Shown piece after piece: positions 3,616-47,618 of a stretch of 64,000 nt of DNA. The DNA lies in assembly GCA_964433435.1 (NCBI GenBank), contig CAYSRM010000001.1, forward strand, positions 1,941-65,940, in the 5' to 3' direction. The notes beneath the pieces are model-generated. The model searched no databases. It was not told the DNA's origin and saw only the letters and a list, made by a program, of their open reading frames with translations. Within the stretch, counting starts at the first letter, position 1; each line of letters begins with the position of its first letter. A program made the translations under genes and the position numbers. This DNA is from an uncultured Victivallales bacterium. Its GTDB lineage: Bacteria; Verrucomicrobiota; Kiritimatiellia; UBA8416; CAYSRM01.

Positions 3616-5268
3616 TTGGGAGTTATTCAAAGTATTTGGGATGTGCTTATTCTGGTGGTGCTTTTTAGCGCCACGATATTTGTGCATGAGTTTGGACATT
3701 TTCTGGTGGCTAGAAAGCTCGGGATGGTTGTGGACGTGTTTTCCATTGGGTTTGGCCCGGCTATCTGGAAGAAAAAGCACAAGGGAGTCACGTACAAGAT
3801 ATCCATGATTCCACTTGGTGGCTACGTAGCGTTACCCCAGCTTGACCCGGCTGCAATGTCGGGTGTGCAGGGAAAGAACAAGGGCGAGGGCCAGTCTGAG
3901 GGAGGAAACGAAGAGCAGGAGCGTGTGCTTCCTCCTGTTTCGCCCTGGAGCAAGATTCTGGTTTCTTTGGCTGGCTCCATGGGCAACATAGTTTTTGCGA
4001 TTATTTTCGCCTTGATTATATATGCGAATCCCGGTTCGGTCACTGGCTCTGAAACTACCCGCATAGGCAGTGTGGCCACAAACAGCCTGGCTTATCAGAA
4101 GGGTATTCGACCGGGTGACCGGATCAACGCTGTGAATGGAACGGAAGTAAACAGCTGGTATCGTTTCCAGGAGGAGACAGTTCTTGGAGTCGGCAAAGAC
4201 GGTGAGGTGACGGTTACACTGGAATCTGGCGGTTCGGTTCGCGAAGTGCGGGTGCCTGTTGCAACCAATGAACTTGCTGCTGGCGTGATACCAGGGATTG
4301 AAACGGCGAGGCAATGCGCAGTGACTAATGTGGCCGGGGGCGGCAGTGCGGCTCGCGCCGGGCTTAGAGAAGGCGATGTTATAGAGGCTGTGGATGGGAA
4401 TGAGGTGGTAAGCTGCCAACATCTTCAGCATGTCACTGAAGGCAGAGATGGTGAAACTGCGCAGGTTACCGTGAGGAGAGGTGAGGAGGAATTAATTCTT
4501 CATCTTGAGTTGCCGATAGAAGGAACCGCTCCGAAGGGCAAGTGCCTGATAGGAGGAATAATCGGAGGTACATCCGCGGACAAGGCAGGATTGAAGGCCG
4601 GGGATGTAATCATTGAACTTGCCGGGGTGCCCATTGTCAACTGGCGACAGTTTATAGAGAAGGTGAACGAGCATAAAGGTGAGACGCTTCCGATAGTTGT
4701 GCTTCGCGGTGATGATCTGGTTGAGACGGAAGTGACTCCCGAATATGACGAGGAGCGGGAGCGTGCTTTGATCGGAATAGTACTGGGAGTCAGGCCTACC
4801 CTTCCCTGGATGAGATACAGGAGCCCTGCCAGGCAATTGACCAATGATGCATTGGCGATTGTACGGGTGTTGAGCGCCCTGGTTAATCCTTCGAGTTCCG
4901 GCAACGCCGCCAAAGCGATTGGCGGACCTCTTATGATCATCATGACTTTGTGGGCATCAATAAAAATAAGTGTGCTGAATGCTGTAGGGTTTCTCAGGTT
5001 TCTTAACATCAATCTGGCTGTATTGAATCTTCTGCCTATTCCTGTTCTTGACGGGGGGCACATCATGTTTTCTTTGTGGGAAGGGATCACGAAGAAGCGT
5101 ATTAACCCCAGATTCATCAATATACTGGTGAATATCTTTATGGTTCTGTTGCTTGGGCTTTTTCTGCTTATAACCTTCAGGGATATTGAGAGGGGTTTCA
5201 GGAGCGGCAAAGAGGTGAAAAAGGAAGAACGGCAGGCGGATGGGGAGAAGAGTGGGGATGGGGAGTGA
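3616..5268 (+). CDS. rseP: Regulated intramembrane metalloprotease RseP (site-2 protease, M50) with PDZ domains; TTG start
   Basis: HEFGHFLVAR HExxH motif in the first TM helix, PDZ-like segments, C-terminal LDGGH motif. Contains a Gly/Glu-rich low-complexity insertion. Confidence 0.88.
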   Translation: MGVIQSIWDVLILVVLFSATIFVHEFGHFLVARKLGMVVDVFSIGFGPAIWKKKHKGVTYKISMIPLGGYVALPQLDPAAMSGVQGKNKGEGQSEGGNEEQERVLPPVSPWSKILVSLAGSMGNIVFAIIFALIIYANPGSVTGSETTRIGSVATNSLAYQKGIRPGDRINAVNGTEVNSWYRFQEETVLGVGKDGEVTVTLESGGSVREVRVPVATNELAAGVIPGIETARQCAVTNVAGGGSAARAGLREGDVIEAVDGNEVVSCQHLQHVTEGRDGETAQVTVRRGEEELILHLELPIEGTAPKGKCLIGGIIGGTSADKAGLKAGDVIIELAGVPIVNWRQFIEKVNEHKGETLPIVVLRGDDLVETEVTPEYDEERERALIGIVLGVRPTLPWMRYRSPARQLTNDALAIVRVLSALVNPSSSGNAAKAIGGPLMIIMTLWASIKISVLNAVGFLRFLNINLAVLNLLPIPVLDGGHIMFSLWEGITKKRINPRFINILVNIFMVLLLGLFLLITFRDIERGFRSGKEVKKEERQADGEKSGDGE

Positions 5269-5296
5269 GTGTGTGGGTTGCGACCGGGGGCCGTGT

Positions 5297-5378
5297 TATT
5301 GGTTGACAGGGGGAATGTTCAATGATCAAGGGGGAGAAGAAGAAAAGACTACGAAAGGCGCGAAAGGGCGCGAAATTG
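5297..5378. repeat. Mosaic intergenic repeat, copy 2 (rseP-ispG spacer). A-remnant plus D plus E modules
   Basis: ttattggttgacaggggGAATGTTCAATGATCAAGGGGGAGAAGAAGAAAAgaCTACGAAAGGCGCGAAAGGGCGCGAAA. Confidence 0.6.
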
Positions 5379-5408
5379 CGTTAATTTGATTCGATCGTTT
5401 TGCGATAG

Positions 5409-6524
5409 ATGTCAAATTTCTACAGGGAGTTGATGAAAGTTTTATCTATAGAGCGCAGAAAGACCAGGCGGATTTATGTTGGCTCAGTGGCTGTGGGCGG
5501 TGGGGCGCCTGTTTCGGTTCAGAGCATGACAAAGACCGACACTCGCGATGTCGACGCAACGCTTTGCCAGATTGACGGCCTCGCTGCTGCGGGTTGTGAT
5601 ATTATCCGTGTTGCCGTGCCTGATGACGAGGCGGCGCAGGCGCTGGGGCGAATTTGCAGGGAATCGGCTTTGCCCGTGGTTGCCGACGTTCATTTCCGGC
5701 ATGATCTTGCCATAAAATCTGTAGACGCAGGCGCTGCGGGGTTAAGGATAAATCCGGGCAATATAGGGGACAAGGCCAAGGTAGCCGAGGTGGTTAAAGC
5801 TGCCGCAGGCAGGAAGGTGCCGATACGCGTGGGTGTCAACAGCGGTTCGCTTCAGAAGGACCTGATCGAGAAATATGGCGGGCCGGGTGTCGAGGCTCTT
5901 GTAGAAAGCGCCTTAAGATCGGTTTCGCTTGTAGAGCAGCTCGGGTGCCGGGATATCAAGATTTCAGCGAAGAGTTCAAATCCCATGGTTACTGTTGAGG
6001 TATACCGCAAGCTTTCCGAGCGCACAGATTATCCGTTACATCTTGGAGTTACCGAGGCTGGTACCCTGCAGGCCGGAACTATCCGTTCTTGTGCGGCGTT
6101 GTCGGTGCTTCTTTATCAAGGTATTGGCGACACTATAAGGATTTCGTTGACTGCAGATCCTATAAAGGAGGTTCAGACAGGTCTTGAATTGTTGCGCTGT
6201 TTCGGGCATCGGGACGTGGGGCCGAGTGTCATATCATGTCCCACGTGCGGAAGAACGCAGGTGGATGTGGCCGCTGTAGCCGCAGCAGTTGAGGCTGAAC
6301 TTGAGAAGATTTATCGGCTTAATCCCTCATTGAGGCGGCCAGTAGTTGCGGTGATGGGTTGTGTGGTGAACGGACCTGGCGAGGCGAGAGAAGCGGATAT
6401 AGCCGCAGCGGGCGGGCGCGGGCAGTTTGCGCTTTATGTGGCAGGGAAGCATGTCAGGACGGTTTCTGAGGGGCGGATTGTTGAGGAATTGGTTGCGGAA
6501 GTCGAGAGATGGGGGAAGGGGTGA
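5409..6524 (+). CDS. ispG: 4-hydroxy-3-methylbut-2-enyl diphosphate synthase
   Basis: Conserved IspG N-terminus (RRKTRRIYVGSVAVGGGAPVSVQSMTKT) and C-terminal Cys cluster (CPTCGRT…). Confidence 0.95.
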   Translation: MSNFYRELMKVLSIERRKTRRIYVGSVAVGGGAPVSVQSMTKTDTRDVDATLCQIDGLAAAGCDIIRVAVPDDEAAQALGRICRESALPVVADVHFRHDLAIKSVDAGAAGLRINPGNIGDKAKVAEVVKAAAGRKVPIRVGVNSGSLQKDLIEKYGGPGVEALVESALRSVSLVEQLGCRDIKISAKSSNPMVTVEVYRKLSERTDYPLHLGVTEAGTLQAGTIRSCAALSVLLYQGIGDTIRISLTADPIKEVQTGLELLRCFGHRDVGPSVISCPTCGRTQVDVAAVAAAVEAELEKIYRLNPSLRRPVVAVMGCVVNGPGEAREADIAAAGGRGQFALYVAGKHVRTVSEGRIVEELVAEVERWGKG

Positions 6525-20671: not shown

Positions 20672-20930
20672 TTGCTCGCTGCGCGAGGGGCATTGGTCAT
20701 TGGTCATTAGTCATTGGTGGGGGAGGGGGGAATATTCAATATCCAACCACGCCTTCGCTCGGGTAGCTTCGGCGGGCGCTGCCACGCCTTCGCTCAGATA
20801 GCTTCGGCGGGCGCAGCACGGAATGGTTAATGATGAAGGGTGGGAAAGAAGAAGATTGTAACCACAGAGAGCACAGAGAAGAGGAAGAAGAGATAGACTG
20901 CGAAAAGTGCGAAAGGGCGCGAAATTGGGG
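20672..20930. repeat. Mosaic intergenic repeat, copy 3 (hisB-hisA spacer). Order is A-B-C-C-D-…-E with a tandem C duplication
   Basis: A at 20688-20718, B at 20719-20746, C at 20747-20778, second C at 20781-20816, D at 20817-20856, E-like at 20898-20927. Confidence 0.7.
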
Positions 20931-20995
20931 GAGGTTGGGATGTTTGCAGGGAGCAGGCACGAGGCATGCTCTTACGGATGGGGAGGAGAGTTGAT

Positions 20996-26455: not shown

Positions 26456-27775
26456 ATGCGTATTGAATTTCAAGATGATTTTTTATCTTGTTGTAAGTTT
26501 GTGCGGCTTTTGTCCTGTTTTGGTTTGTTGATATTTGCGGTGTCGACGGTTTGTTTTGCTTCTAAAGCTGAGGTTGTCTCAGGGGAAGTTGATGTTAGCA
26601 ACGAAAGCGACATTGCATACCGCAAAATAAAGCAGCTTGTCGAAGTCATGATACACATACGGGAGCATTATGTAAAAGAAGTCGGGTATGATGAGATTGT
26701 TGAAGGAGCCCTTCAAGGGATGCTTAGATCCATTGACAGATACAGTGGTTTTCTTGAGAAGAAGGCGTTTGACGAAATACGGATGGAGACAACCGGACAG
26801 TATAGCGGAATTGGCATTCATGTGGGTGTTCGCGATAATCTTCTTACCGTTATTGCTCCTATCGAGGACAGTCCCGGGTTCAGGGCGGGTCTGCAATCGG
26901 GTGATAAAATTCTTGAGATTGACGGGGAAGAGATGATTGATCCTTCCCTGGAAGAAGCAGTCAAAAAGATGCGGGGCAAAAAAGGGGTTCCGGTAACGCT
27001 GATGATCAGGAGAGAAGATGAGAATGAGGCCAGGGAAATCACAATAGTGAGGGATGACATAGAGGTTCCTTCCGTTAAAGGGCAGCGAATGGTTCGTGAC
27101 AACATAGGGTACGTTCGGATTACCACTTTTGCCGAGACGACCCCGGACCATCTGGAGTCGGTTCTGGAGTCTCTGAAAACGAATAATCTTGAAGCCCTGA
27201 TCCTTGATTTGCGAAGCAATCCGGGCGGACTTTTGTCGGCGGCTCATCAAGTGGCCCAGAAATTTCTTAAGCGGGGTGCTCTGATTGTGACGACGAAGGG
27301 GCGGACTGGGGTGCATGAACCTAGAGAGTTTAAAGCAGGAGGAAATTATGTCCTGGGCGACATGCCGATTGCGGTACTGATTAACGGAGGCAGCGCAAGC
27401 GCTTCGGAAATTGTTGCCGGCGCTTTGCATGCTCACAACAAGGCCATCCTGGTCGGTGACACCAGTTTCGGTAAGGGGTCCGTGCAGAGTGTGGTGCCGT
27501 TGCGCAGCGAAGAGGGCACAGCGATACGACTTACTACGGCTTACTATTACACGCCGGACGGGCGGAAGATACACGAAAAGGGCCTTGAACCTGATGTGCG
27601 GGTGTATGTTTCCGCCGGGGAATGGCGCCGGATTCAGCTTGACAGGGCTCGAATTGAAACGAGGGAAACTTCTGCTGAGGGCGAGGGTATAAACGGGGAG
27701 GTAAATGATTCTCAGCTTGAAAGGGCTGCAGATATTCTGCAGGCCGTGATTAAATTCGAGGCTATGGGCCTATGA
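26456..27775 (+). CDS. ctpA: S41 C-terminal processing peptidase (tail-specific protease family) with PDZ domain and signal peptide
   Basis: PDZ segment (…GLQSGDKILEIDGEE…) and an S41 catalytic region (…NGGSASASEIVAGAL…GDTSFGKGSVQ…). Confidence 0.85.
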   Translation: MRIEFQDDFLSCCKFVRLLSCFGLLIFAVSTVCFASKAEVVSGEVDVSNESDIAYRKIKQLVEVMIHIREHYVKEVGYDEIVEGALQGMLRSIDRYSGFLEKKAFDEIRMETTGQYSGIGIHVGVRDNLLTVIAPIEDSPGFRAGLQSGDKILEIDGEEMIDPSLEEAVKKMRGKKGVPVTLMIRREDENEAREITIVRDDIEVPSVKGQRMVRDNIGYVRITTFAETTPDHLESVLESLKTNNLEALILDLRSNPGGLLSAAHQVAQKFLKRGALIVTTKGRTGVHEPREFKAGGNYVLGDMPIAVLINGGSASASEIVAGALHAHNKAILVGDTSFGKGSVQSVVPLRSEEGTAIRLTTAYYYTPDGRKIHEKGLEPDVRVYVSAGEWRRIQLDRARIETRETSAEGEGINGEVNDSQLERAADILQAVIKFEAMGL

Positions 27776-28809
27776 TAATTCTGGGAATTGAGACATCCTG
27801 TGATGAGACGGCTGCTGCGGTAGTTGAGGATGGGGCCCGGGTTCTTTCCAGTACCGTGTTCAGCCAGGTTAAGCTCCACGAACCGTATGGGGGGGTGGTG
27901 CCGGAGATTGCATCGCGCAGTCATGTGGAATGTCTGCCGGATGTCGTGTGCAGTGCTATGGAAGAATCGGGGTGCAGCTGGGAGAATATTGATCGCATTG
28001 CTGTTACCTCCGGTCCCGGGCTGGCCAGTTCTTTACTCGTAGGGATTTCCTTTGCAAAAGGTCTAAGTATGCGCCTTGGGCGGCCGTTGTATGGTATCAA
28101 CCATATCAGAGCCCATGTTTACTCAGCGTTTCTAGGTGAGGACACGCCTGCAATTTGGGATATAGGTCCGTTTATTGCTCTGGTTGTTTCCGGTGGTCAT
28201 ACGTCGCTCATCAGGTTTTGCAGTCCTGATGAATACAGGGTTTTAGGCGAGACCATAGACGATGCTGCTGGCGAAGCCTTTGACAAAGGGGCCAAGCTGC
28301 TCGGGCTCGGGTATCCTGGAGGGCCTGTTATTGATCGTGTTTCCAGGGATGGAGATCCGGAGATGATTCGTTTTCCGCGAGGGAAGCAACAAAAGACAGA
28401 TTTTTGCGGTGATTTTGATCCTGAATTATGTTTCAGCTTCAGCGGGTTGAAGACTTCTCTTTTGTACTATCTTAAAAAGCACTCCGCCGAAGTCATTCCT
28501 GAAAGAACAGCATCTATTGCCGCCAGTTACCAGGAGGCTATTGTTGATTCGATCGTTCAAAGATGTGAAAAAGTTTTGTCTGGTGAGCGTACTCTTCTGG
28601 TAGCCGGCGGGGTTTCCTTGAACAGCCGGTTGAGGACTGCTTTGGCGAAACTTTGTGAACGCAGGGACGTTAAGTTATTGCTGCCCGGACCGAATTATTG
28701 CACGGACAATGCTGCTATGATTGCAGGCGCATGCTGGATGGACGGGAGTGTTGTTGAGGCCGAAGCAGGCGTGCTGGATGCGGAGCCGGGGCGTTCGTTT
28801 TCCGGCTGA
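27772..28809 (+). CDS. tsaD: tRNA N6-adenosine threonylcarbamoyltransferase
   Basis: Kae1/TsaD signature (MIILGIETSCDETAAAVV…, …VSGGHTSL…, …GVSLNSRLR…). Confidence 0.95.
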   Translation: MIILGIETSCDETAAAVVEDGARVLSSTVFSQVKLHEPYGGVVPEIASRSHVECLPDVVCSAMEESGCSWENIDRIAVTSGPGLASSLLVGISFAKGLSMRLGRPLYGINHIRAHVYSAFLGEDTPAIWDIGPFIALVVSGGHTSLIRFCSPDEYRVLGETIDDAAGEAFDKGAKLLGLGYPGGPVIDRVSRDGDPEMIRFPRGKQQKTDFCGDFDPELCFSFSGLKTSLLYYLKKHSAEVIPERTASIAASYQEAIVDSIVQRCEKVLSGERTLLVAGGVSLNSRLRTALAKLCERRDVKLLLPGPNYCTDNAAMIAGACWMDGSVVEAEAGVLDAEPGRSFSG

Positions 28810-28877
28810 CATAGGTTGCGCGGCGTCGGGTGAGAGAGGGGTCCTGTCGGAAGTTTTGATTTTTTTTCGCGGCAACT

Positions 28878-28915
28878 TGACTTTTGGCCGCGATCGGGAC
28901 ATTATATGCGCCGAC
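28878..28915 (+). promoter_or_regulatory. Candidate sigma70-type promoter for the tRNA locus
   Basis: TTGACT, a 17-bp spacer and CATTAT(AT) about 15-20 nt upstream of the tRNA-like sequence. Confidence 0.45.
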
Positions 28916-28927
28916 TTCCGGAGGAAT

Positions 28928-28980
28928 GCGGGTGTAGCTTAGTGGTAAAGCTTCCGCCTTCGTCCGGAGGCTACGGCGAG
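28928..28980 (+). pseudogene. 5' fragment of a tRNA-Gly-like gene. It has the acceptor 5' strand and D-arm but no T-arm or 3' acceptor strand
   Basis: The first 25 nt (gcgggtgtagcttagtggtaaagct) are identical to the intact tRNA-Gly 130 nt downstream. The following arm is degenerate and no ttcgattcc or cacccgc follows. Confidence 0.6.
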
Positions 28981-29057
28981 ACAAGCCAGCCAAAGCTCTC
29001 GCGTATGTGATTAATGATCAGGGTCTCCGGGTGTGTATGTGTGAGGTTTATATGGTT

Positions 29058-29131
29058 GCGGGTGTAGCTTAGTGGTAAAGCTCCAGCCTTCCAAGCTGGC
29101 TACGCGGGTTCGATTCCCGCCACCCGCTCCA
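29058..29131 (+). tRNA. tRNA-Gly (anticodon TCC), CCA encoded
   Basis: Manual fold: acceptor gcgggtg/cacccgc, D-arm gctt-agtggta-aagc, anticodon stem ccagc/gctgg with loop cttccaa, T-arm gcggg-ttcgatt-cccgc, discriminator t, cca. Confidence 0.9.
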
Positions 29132-29188
29132 AAGAAAGTCTTGTCTCTATCTTGACATCTGGCTATCCGGTATGGTACTTCGCACGTC

Positions 29189-30202
29189 ATGTCAATTCAC
29201 GAAGATAAGAGCGCCGGATGCGGGGCGCATGGTTTCAGCGGCGGAAAACCGGAGAAAGCTGTTGTAACCGTCAAGGCTCCGGCCAAGGTTAATCTTTTTC
29301 TTAAGGTTCTTGGCATGCGCGCGGACGGCTATCATGACATTGAAAGCCTTTTGTGTCCTGTTTCTCTTTGGGATATTTTAGACATTGAATTGCGCGATGA
29401 CGGACGGATTGAGCTGGATATGCAGGTTGAGGACGTGCCCGGCAGCCGCAAACTTGAAAAAACCGGACCGGGGGAGAATCTTGCTGTCAGGGCTGCCTGT
29501 CTTTTGCGTGACAGGGCAGGGTGTATTGACGGTGCGGACATCAGGCTGAAAAAACGGATACCGGTTGGCGGAGGTCTGGGTGGGGGCAGTTCTGACGCTG
29601 CCGCTGTATTGATGGGGCTGAACGCATTGTGGGATTTGAATATTGAGAAGCGGGAACTGATGGATCTGGGGTGTGAAATTGGTTGTGATGTGCCTGCTTT
29701 GGTGCATGGGGGGATGGTTCTGGTGGAAGGTATGGGGGAGAGAGTCAGGCGTCCGGATATTGATCTATCGGGTTCGACCGGGAAGATGAACCTGGTTCTG
29801 GCTAATCCGGGTTTTTCGGTTTCGACCGGTGATATATATTCACGCTACAACGGGGGCTTGACCGCAGGGGATGGTGAAGTTAGTATGTTGCTTTTGTCCA
29901 TGGTTCAAGGCGAAGCTGGTGAAGCAGCGGGCCGATTGCGCAATGATTTACAGGAAGTGGTTTTCAGGAAGTACCCGCTTATTGAGATTCTGGCGGAGCA
30001 TTTAAAAGCTGCCGGGGCTATTGACGTATTGTTATCTGGGAGCGGATCTACCGTTTTCGGGCTTGCCGAGAGCGAAAGGCATGCCATGTTGATAGCCGGG
30101 GGCCTGGTGGAACGGTCGGGTTTTCCTGTGTGGACAAAAGTTGTGCAGACGGTGCCCGATGGTGTAATGGTAGCACACGGCCCTTTGGAGGCCAGAGTCT
30201 AG
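29189..30202 (+). CDS. ispE: 4-diphosphocytidyl-2-C-methyl-D-erythritol kinase. The ORF's last approximately 50 nt run into tRNA-Gln
   Basis: GHMP kinase motifs (…KAPAKVNLFLKV.G.R.DGYH…, …PVGGGLGGGSSDAAA…). N-terminal 25 aa may not be translated. Confidence 0.88.
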   Translation: MSIHEDKSAGCGAHGFSGGKPEKAVVTVKAPAKVNLFLKVLGMRADGYHDIESLLCPVSLWDILDIELRDDGRIELDMQVEDVPGSRKLEKTGPGENLAVRAACLLRDRAGCIDGADIRLKKRIPVGGGLGGGSSDAAAVLMGLNALWDLNIEKRELMDLGCEIGCDVPALVHGGMVLVEGMGERVRRPDIDLSGSTGKMNLVLANPGFSVSTGDIYSRYNGGLTAGDGEVSMLLLSMVQGEAGEAAGRLRNDLQEVVFRKYPLIEILAEHLKAAGAIDVLLSGSGSTVFGLAESERHAMLIAGGLVERSGFPVWTKVVQTVPDGVMVAHGPLEARV

Positions 30203-30226
30203 GTTCGAATCCTAGTCGGGCAACCA
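30153..30226 (+). tRNA. tRNA-Gln (anticodon TTG), CCA encoded
   Basis: Manual fold: acceptor tgcccga/tcgggca (U1-A72, typical of Gln), anticodon stem cggcc/ggcca with loop ctttgga, T-arm ctagg-ttcgaat-cctag, discriminator a, cca. Confidence 0.8.
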
Positions 30227-47520: not shown

Positions 47521-47618
47521 GGTGAAACGGGCGTGAAAGGAATGTGGGACGTGGAACGCGGGAGCGTTGCAATCTACGGGAAGGGGGGGCAGCAGGTTGG
47601 AGAACAACCTGCTGTACT
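47521..47618. repeat. Mosaic intergenic repeat, copy 4 (rsmA-mutS spacer). Degenerate E plus the F palindrome
   Basis: …gaaacgggcgtgaaagg…ctacgggaaggggggg then CAGCAGGTTG-gagaa-CAACCTGCTG (47590-47614), 10/10 bp identical stem to 565-589. Confidence 0.55.

Follow-up and report, generated by a model that had tools for sequence, protein, structure and literature searches.

A partial tRNA-Gly gene in front of the intact one

When part of a tRNA gene is found duplicated, the copy is routinely taken for the footprint of an integrase and serves to mark the limits of a genomic island. What kind of event leaves such a footprint where there is no island? This question is raised by a locus in the window, the 64,000-nt stretch of contig CAYSRM010000001.1 from an uncultured Victivallales bacterium that we analysed, in which the 5' part of a tRNA-Gly(TCC) gene is repeated upstream of the intact gene. 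The footprint lies on the 5' side of the gene, and its filler, the 104 nt between the two copies, is that of a chromosomal hairpin repeat. We found that the arrangement is a real insertion specific to this lineage, which is best read as a recombination scar. Tentatively, and with confidence just short of even, we ascribe this scar to an illegitimate, duplicative insertion of host-type repeat DNA. The locus is made up of the following parts.

28927-28952, + strand: direct-repeat copy 1, a dead stub; one T followed by tRNA-Gly nt 1-25, which comprise the 5' acceptor strand and the D-arm; 26/26 identical to copy 2
28953-28990, + strand: hairpin repeat TCCGCCTTCGTCCGGAGGCTACGGCGAGACAAGCCAGC, similar to repetitive extragenic palindromic (REP) sequences; it matches the family described below, of which the local module C is a variant
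28991-29056, + strand: remaining filler, with the D-module-like TGATTAATGATCAGGG at 29008-29023; its last 22 nt resemble the tRNA-Gly leader of the relative L002
29057-29082, + strand: direct-repeat copy 2; T plus nt 1-25 of the intact gene
29058-29131, + strand: intact tRNA-Gly(TCC); ARAGORN call, 75.9 bits in Rfam, a cloverleaf within the predicted fold of the 223-nt precursor

An earlier note on this DNA had reported a fragment identical over 25 nt to a tRNA-Gly located 130 nt downstream. Both the identity and the coordinates were correct: 28927-28952 and 29057-29082 both read TGCGGGTGTAGCTTAGTGGTAAAGCT (26 nt, consisting of one upstream T and tRNA-Gly nt 1-25), without a single difference. 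A repeat search aligned 35 nt of the two copies (28927-28961 versus 29057-29091) at a spacing of 130 nt, with 33/35 positions (94%) identical. The intact tRNA-Gly(TCC) at 29058-29131 was recognised by ARAGORN, which made no call in the upstream copy. The sole Rfam tRNA match (29058-29128) was likewise that of the intact gene, and a 481-nt search with the threshold relaxed to E≤10 gave no tRNA-like match in 28781-29057. The upstream copy (28928-28952) is a non-functional stub and not a second tRNA; a complete or degenerate tRNA at this position, where the earlier note had found neither a 3' acceptor strand nor a T-arm, was rejected.

The homology of the stub to tRNA-Gly breaks off abruptly, from 26/26 to background. 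Local alignment of the 104 nt after the stub (28953-29056) with the 104 nt after the same point in the gene (29083-29186) gave a score of 9, compared to 8.3 ± 1.4 for shuffled sequences (p=0.37), i.e., no residual homology. An independent Logan assembly contig (L001, SRR15425353) matches the window base for base from the stub through the filler into the beginning of the tRNA. Therefore, the arrangement is not an artefact of the assembler that produced this metagenome-assembled genome (MAG).

The intact gene differs from its orthologs in the two closest relatives (L002 and L003; see below) at nt 9 (29066), which is A in the window, as in the stub, and T in the relatives. Its variable loop (29101-29104) reads CTAC instead of TAAC. 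This change gives the 7-mer GGCTACG, the same as in the inserted hairpin at 28968-28974, an identity for which gene conversion, a donor allele, or chance are possible reasons.

The insertion is specific to the window lineage

TsaD relatives place the organism in Victivallales (Lentisphaerota). The closest relatives of the window are two Victivallales MAGs, L002 (CAYTRK01, TsaD 86% identical) and L003 (CAZIXB01, TsaD 83% identical and the region fully syntenic). Both carry the same promoter as the window, followed within ~20 nt by one tRNA-Gly(TCC). Comparison of these orthologous loci, which the earlier note had proposed, therefore identifies a 130-nt insertion in the window lineage that now separates the promoter from tRNA-Gly. 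The TsaD proteins of L002 and L003 are 81% identical to each other, so the window is no further from either of them than they are from one another, and a single gain in the window lineage is therefore the parsimonious reading. More distant relatives have not kept the synteny from tsaD to tRNA-Gly that an outgroup comparison would use, and an exact look-up of IspE for other strains returned no record.

In the window, the gene order is ctpA-like peptidase (26456-27775), tsaD (27772-28809), promoter, stub, 104-nt filler, tRNA-Gly, ispE (29189-30202), tRNA-Gln, prs, rplY, and pth. The promoter in question was predicted as follows.

28877-28905, + strand: predicted sigma-70-type promoter of the tRNA-Gly unit; TTGACT, 17-nt spacer, CATTAT, with the same hexamers in L003 and L002

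This TTGACT-17-CATTAT element is the sole promoter-like site predicted in 28700-29300, and none was predicted in this interval directly upstream of the intact tRNA-Gly. No intrinsic terminator was predicted on the + strand at the locus, and read-through from the old promoter into tRNA-Gly is therefore plausible.

In L002, the 3' end of tRNA-Gly is precisely the point at which synteny is lost (position 2692 onward); asnB, a histidine kinase gene, and the gene for a sigma-54 regulator replace ispE-prs-rplY-pth there. Both ends of the tRNA-Gly gene are therefore points of rearrangement in this group. Further downstream, the ispE frame (29189-30226 in the window, 3052-4086 in L003) overlaps the tRNA-Gln gene, which has the same orientation, by 50 nt in both genomes.

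The filler starts at the foot of a hairpin repeat

The window holds four copies of a repeat module, termed module C, in addition to the inserted one.

637-661, + strand: module C reference copy, a relative of the inserted hairpin
412-436, − strand; 20750-20774, + strand; 20785-20809, + strand: further module C copies (0-2 mismatches); with the reference there are four copies, compared to 0 copies expected by chance

These copies are part of mosaic intergenic arrays, which we located at 395-715, 5290-5390, 20680-20940, and 47587-47618. The arrays are composed of runs of the heptamer GGTCATT, GAATATTCAATATCCA, the C hairpin, GGAATGTTCAATGATGAAGG, CTACGAAAGGCGCGAAAGGGCGCGAAA, and a further hairpin, GGGCAGCAGGTTGGAGGACAACCTGCTG. 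They are common to the relatives L050, L091, and L118, and their modules also occur in the two closest relatives. The window and L091 differ entirely in module content at two orthologous intergenic sites (360-760 and 5220-5460 in the window), including tandem 35-nt duplications of C. This difference points to a very fast turnover of the arrays.

The earlier note had likened the start of the filler to module C and a later part of it to the core of a module D. Compared with the local arrays, the first of these similarities was only marginal: the filler start matched module C at 20/24 positions with one gap (shuffle p=0.026), and genuine module C copies differ from each other at 0-2 of 25 positions. 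Against the wider family, the first 34 nt of the filler matched a copy from Verrucomicrobia (L077) at 32/34 positions, and a copy from Vicinamibacterales (L046) was matched at 34/38. Both matches extend on either side to bases outside the pattern with which these copies had been searched, e.g., the ACAAGC tail. The similarity is convincing only against this wider family, where the 32/34 match covers flanks that the pattern did not specify. On this evidence, the C-like piece of the filler is a genuine member of the hairpin class, and chance, one of the explanations considered in the earlier note, is rejected for this part.

For the D-like part, chance is a less remote explanation. The sequence TAATGATCAGGG at 29012-29023 indeed echoes the D core, and the match to module D alone reached p=0.059. 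We then built a combined C+D profile from five genuine units, two from the window and three from relatives. It gave one collinear alignment at 28955-29023, at rank 7 directly after the six genuine copies (E=0.15 in the window). This result is suggestive, and a D-module echo in the filler is plausible, if unproven.

No homologue of the filler past its first 35-40 nt was found in the rest of the window or in 119 loci. Its last ~65 nt had no homologue in the window, these loci, viral contigs, or the JGI metagenomes, and a 27-mer from the filler was likewise absent from the JGI metagenomes. The last 22 nt matched the −10 region and leader of L002 at 14/22 positions, ungapped and in register. Local alignment of the filler with the DNA from promoter to leader in the window, L003, and L002 was not significant (p=0.27-0.84), and the in-register match to the L002 leader is the only one that stands out. 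Inverted repeats between the ends of the filler were not found, and an Rfam search of stub, filler, and hairpin (the window and 20 + 8 loci) returned no known RNA family.

A hairpin class found in many phyla

We scanned 185,579 species genomes with a degenerate pattern covering module C and the junction, which gave at least 115 stretches among the matches listed. Their consensus is a hairpin of ~35 nt, (T)CCGCC-TTC-GCN-(N)GG(N)-N'GC-T(T/A)C-GGCG(A/G)G-(A/G)CAAG(C/T)C, with an outer stem CGCC/GGCG and an inner stem GCN/N'GC. Many of the matches are intergenic copies, which come from Verrucomicrobiota, Lentisphaerota, Kiritimatiellota, Acidobacteriota, Nitrospirales, Hydrogenedentes, and Bacteroidales, among others. 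The free pair of the inner stem covaries (CG 22, GC 12, UA 9, UG 4, GU 2): it is paired in 71% of the copies compared to 44% in shuffles, a value reached by 0/2000 of them, and its covariation score of 0.109 (0.056 in shuffles) was reached by 0/500. Controls in which the partner column was slid showed no covariation signal. The class is absent from Rfam 15, and searches of the literature for its sequence strings returned no papers. In Nitrospirales and Hydrogenedentes MAGs, the hairpin stands within a longer conserved context, GGCCCTTCGGGCCATC...ACAAGCCCCC.

The class is chromosomal. In IMG/VR, we obtained one match to the hairpin pattern only, which is coding, and the class is thus nearly absent from viral contigs. 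This match (L124, 7590-7660) lies in an integrase box, HAFRHAFARRLRRAG, and adjoins a fragment of a tRNA 3' part. The pattern can therefore arise in GC-rich coding DNA as well, which is the case for some of the 115 genome matches; a division of the copies into coding and intergenic ones by simple open reading frame calls was uninformative in GC-rich genomes.

The stem of the inserted copy ends in GGAGGCTAC, i.e., CTAC, or GTAG on the other strand. Family-wide, T is more frequent than A at this position, and most copies read GCTTC. GTAG-tagged REP families have been reported in the Planctomycetes-Verrucomicrobia-Chlamydiae (PVC) group, and one criterion for REPs is a stem-loop tagged at one end with the tetranucleotide GTAG or CGTC (Di Nocera et al. 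2013, PMC3733652).

Conservation among the 115 copies listed does not extend to the bases 5' of the hairpin, and the tRNA model of Rfam gave no match on the repeats. tRNA genes lie within ≤250 nt of a copy in 4/115 cases, an enrichment that is not convincing once the intergenic bias is allowed for. The similarity of the hairpin family to tRNA-Gly was marginal with the gene of the window (p=0.044) and absent with that of L003 (p=0.66). In metagenomes, GGTAAAGCTT stands directly before CCGCCTTCG in four unrelated arrays of the same repeat class; these are 18-mer tandem arrays without any acceptor or D-stem sequence upstream. The JGI contigs L129, L134, and L135 contain tandem arrays of the 18-mer GGTAAAGCTTCCGCCTTC, followed by CTACGGCGGACAAG words, and represent a sub-type of the class. 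They reproduce the sequence of the stub/filler junction without any tRNA.

Leader, stub, and hairpin are predicted to form a stem-loop

The DNA in front of the stub is also involved, with two further features.

28909-28926, + strand: 5' leader CGCCGACTTCCGGAGGAA, orthologous to the L003 leader and probably remodelled to pair with the inserted hairpin
28909-28978, + strand: long predicted stem-loop that has the D-arm as its tip and in which the hairpin repeat pairs with the leader and the acceptor strand of the stub

An inverted repeat (28917-28931/28954-28968) is complementary at 13/15 positions. The predicted fold of 28909-28990 has a free energy of −39.7 kcal/mol (z=−4.29), and 0/200 shuffled sequences were as stable. 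The same stem-loop appears in the predicted fold of the 223-nt precursor, in which the real tRNA still adopts its cloverleaf. This stability depends on the leader of the window: exchange of its 17-18 nt for the L003 version reduced it to −29.1 kcal/mol (z=−0.56), and the L002 version (−22.4 kcal/mol, z=0.29) abolished the stem-loop. The leaders of the window and L003 are identical at 17/22 positions. The differences cluster in 13 nt, and all of them improve pairing. These data suggest that the insertion was followed by a remodelling of the leader, through templated correction of a quasi-palindrome or through selection. According to the predicted fold, the stem-loop may sequester the GCGGG of the stub and could thereby stop it from mispairing with the 3' acceptor strand of the real tRNA.

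Origin of the scar

The earlier note had considered the insertion of a repeat-family element into a tRNA gene, followed by re-duplication of the tRNA, and this idea comes close to the data, with respect to both the empty site in the relatives and the hairpin-class membership of the filler. In the explanation that we favour, illegitimate recombination would have joined nt 25/26 of tRNA-Gly(UCC) to the 5' foot of a REP-like hairpin in a single event in the window lineage. This event would have imported ~104 nt of host-type mosaic-repeat DNA and duplicated the first 26 nt, so that the complete gene was rebuilt 130 nt downstream. Only a duplicative outcome would be viable, because a plain insertion would destroy the gene. 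Two routes are conceivable. A repeat array may have been copied during break repair or through a template switch in replication. Alternatively, homologous recombination on one side may have been combined with illegitimate recombination, the partner being related DNA with a leader and a tRNA 5' end of its own. The tRNA would now be transcribed from the old promoter through a leader of ~146 nt, from which RNase P would release it.

Several observations support this explanation. The filler begins exactly at the foot of a chromosomal hairpin repeat, whose class was found in at least 115 genome stretches compared to the single coding match in IMG/VR. The D-like module follows the hairpin collinearly in the C+D profile alignment. 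The mosaic arrays of this lineage are unstable. The 104 nt between the repeats contain neither an integrase gene nor any other element gene, and the insert has no terminal inverted repeats. The strength of the stem-loop (z=−4.29), dependent as it is on the window-specific leader, is also consistent with this explanation. Moreover, the occurrence of GGTAAAGCTT-CCGCCTTCG in metagenomic arrays makes it conceivable that a donor shared a microhomology of 9-10 nt with the D-arm.

Other points weigh against it. The similarity to modules C and D is weak by itself (p=0.026, p=0.059, E=0.15), and no donor copy of the 104-nt filler was found in the 64 kb of this genome that were searched. The duplication begins exactly at tRNA position −1/+1. 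Such a start is expected if the incoming DNA shares only the tRNA part with the target, as an attachment (att) site or a foreign allele would, and is a coincidence for a random template switch. REP mobilisation is not known to yield a 26-nt duplication. Finally, the likeness of the last 22 nt of the filler to the L002 leader hints at imported DNA rather than local copying. The 14/22 match would suit incoming DNA with its own leader and tRNA 5' end, which fits an integrative element as well as the version of the favoured explanation that involves foreign DNA.

An integrative element is accordingly the alternative to be weighed first. The scar would then derive from a rare 5'-type site-specific element whose phage-type attachment site (attP) corresponds to the first 25-35 nt of tRNA-Gly. 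In this case, the left junction (attL) would consist of the host promoter followed by the stub, and the right junction (attR) of element DNA followed by the rebuilt gene. The element itself would later have been deleted almost completely, leaving 104 nt as a remnant like those of cis-mobilizable elements (CIMEs). CIME-type sequences are deletion remnants of integrative elements. The topology of attL and attR is matched exactly: the repeats start from the 5' end of the tRNA, the host promoter adjoins the stub, the complete gene follows downstream, and the site is empty in relatives. The imperfect identity (33/35) ends within the anticodon loop, a classic location for crossover. The 22 nt before the intact gene resemble the leader of another lineage, which is expected of an element that has captured the 5' end of a gene. 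Integration on the 5' side of tRNA genes is on record as a rare event (Zhao & Williams 2002, as cited in PMC6563490).

The earlier note had remarked that integrases normally duplicate the 3' half of a tRNA gene. This is true as a rule, but it is not absolute. A scan of IMG/VR with the 25-mer identified three contigs of temperate phages (L120-L122) that carry an attP of the 5' part of the same tRNA-Gly. They contain only nt 1-41 of tRNA-Gly(TCC), identical at 41/41 positions including A9, and no tRNA was called in them. The fragment is flanked on both sides by ATCCGGA(G/C) arm repeats and lies between an upstream lysozyme gene and a small open reading frame plus a tyrosine integrase gene downstream (L122, 1700-3469).

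Despite these parallels, we consider an integrative element unlikely, although it deserves serious attention. No integrase or other element gene is left between the repeats, and the filler is unlike the arms of the three phages (p=0.39-0.68). Instead, it opens with a chromosomal hairpin that is nearly absent from viral contigs. The hairpin consensus accounts better for the two mismatches, which are at nt 26 and 28. A 5'-type element would also need to bring a promoter, and no promoter is predicted in front of the intact gene. IMG/VR does not contain the junction TAGTGGTAAAGCTTCCGCCTTCG. Of 14 matches to GGTAAAGCTTCCGCCTTCG in the JGI metagenomes, none is a tRNA stub; they are unrelated coding sequences or 18-mer arrays of the repeat class. 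Neither an attP with the same junctions (...TATATGGT-TGCGGGTGTAGCTTAGTGGTAAAGCT-TCCGCCTTCG...) nor a larger occupied allele was present in IMG/VR or among the metagenome matches.

More active roles for the insert appear doubtful to us. The hairpin class could represent a DNA element of an undescribed kind, recombinogenic or mobile, or else a conserved element of RNA or for the binding of protein, and such an element would be able to invade even an essential tRNA gene duplicatively; the remodelled stem-loop would then be a selected insulator that protects the folding of the tRNA. We offer this as speculation with little claim to be correct. It is even somewhat less probable that the arrangement has been kept because it is useful, with the structured leader regulating or insulating the maturation of tRNA-Gly or yielding a stable small RNA. 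The stability of the stem-loop (0/200 shuffles), the fact that every leader difference from L003 improves pairing, and a stub that is still 26/26 identical while being non-coding would all be in line with such a function. However, the arrangement is restricted to a single lineage and not conserved in relatives, the 26-nt identity is too short to prove constraint, and templated correction of quasi-palindromes can make such hairpins without selection.

Two further explanations are very improbable. A tandem duplication of the tRNA and its flanks with subsequent decay of the upstream copy would agree with the direct orientation at a distance of 130 nt, with CCTTC and GGCTACG shared past nt 25, and with CCAAAG present in both units. 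But the two 104-nt units align no better than shuffled sequences (p=0.37), the sudden drop from 26/26 to background is unlike uniform decay, and the diverged part matches the hairpin family at 32/34 positions. Still a little less credible is a tRNA-derived repeat family, comparable to short interspersed nuclear elements (SINEs), of which the stub would be the conserved head of a mobile unit. This second proposal of the earlier note could draw on the marginal similarity of the window tRNA-Gly to the hairpin family (p=0.044) and on GGTAAAGCTT preceding the hairpin foot in four metagenomic contexts. It is not supported, since the tRNA-Gly of a relative shows no such similarity (p=0.66), the 5' flanks of the 115 listed copies are not conserved, no tRNA-model matches occur on the repeats, and the four contexts are 18-mer arrays without acceptor or D-stem. 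Moreover, no other junction of a stub with a hairpin (GCGGGTGTAGCTTAGTGGTAAAGCT plus hairpin) was found in the viral or metagenome collections.

Chance likeness or an assembly artefact can practically be dismissed: weak as the local module C and D similarities are alone, the exact 26-nt repeat is far above chance in 64 kb, the L001 contig is identical, and the match to the wider hairpin family is strong. We also rejected a snap-back (inverted self-copy) origin of 28953-28978, because the hairpin consensus explains more bases plus the AGACAAGCC tail. Insertion of a miniature inverted-repeat transposable element or insertion sequence was discarded as well: terminal inverted repeats are missing, and the duplication comprises 26 nt compared to the fixed-length target duplications of 2-14 bp.

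Significance and relation to known systems

A 5'-side footprint with a filler of chromosomal repeat DNA means that short-repeat dynamics or illegitimate recombination may mimic att scars, or else that 5'-type integration is more common than thought. For the organism itself, the consequence would be that tRNA-Gly(UCC) must now be processed from a long leader with strong secondary structure. More attention than the stub may be merited by the hairpin class that spans phyla and by the phages with a 5'-type attP.

The locus has features in common with several known systems. Like att scars in tRNA genes, it shows a repeat that equals one end of the tRNA gene, a rebuilt gene, an empty site in relatives, and a stub next to the original promoter. 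It differs from them in that only 104 nt are present, without element genes, without a matching attP, and without a predicted promoter for the rebuilt gene.

Templated (microhomology-mediated) insertion and homology-facilitated illegitimate recombination produce a non-homologous joint next to a homologous anchor, together with filler and a short duplication, as seen here. In contrast to such cases, no donor was found at this locus and the mechanism is deduced from sequence only. The leader changes, all of which perfect an inverted repeat, likewise resemble the templated mutation of quasi-palindromes. Eukaryotic tRNA-derived SINEs share with the locus a tRNA-like 5' head followed by unrelated sequence, but here the combination is confined to a single locus, the head measures 25 nt, and the other repeat copies have no tRNA-like head.

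With REPs and bacterial interspersed mosaic elements (BIMEs), the hairpin shares the organisation as an intergenic imperfect palindrome of ~35 nt that occurs in single, tandem, and mosaic copies. Several copies lie in the 64 kb; the one described here ends its stem in CTAC, and most copies of the class read GCTTC. In contrast to REPs, which are usually species- or genus-specific, the class spans many phyla. Taken together, the scar is best read as the combination of an att-like tRNA stub with a REP-like repeat, each of which would by itself be of a known kind.

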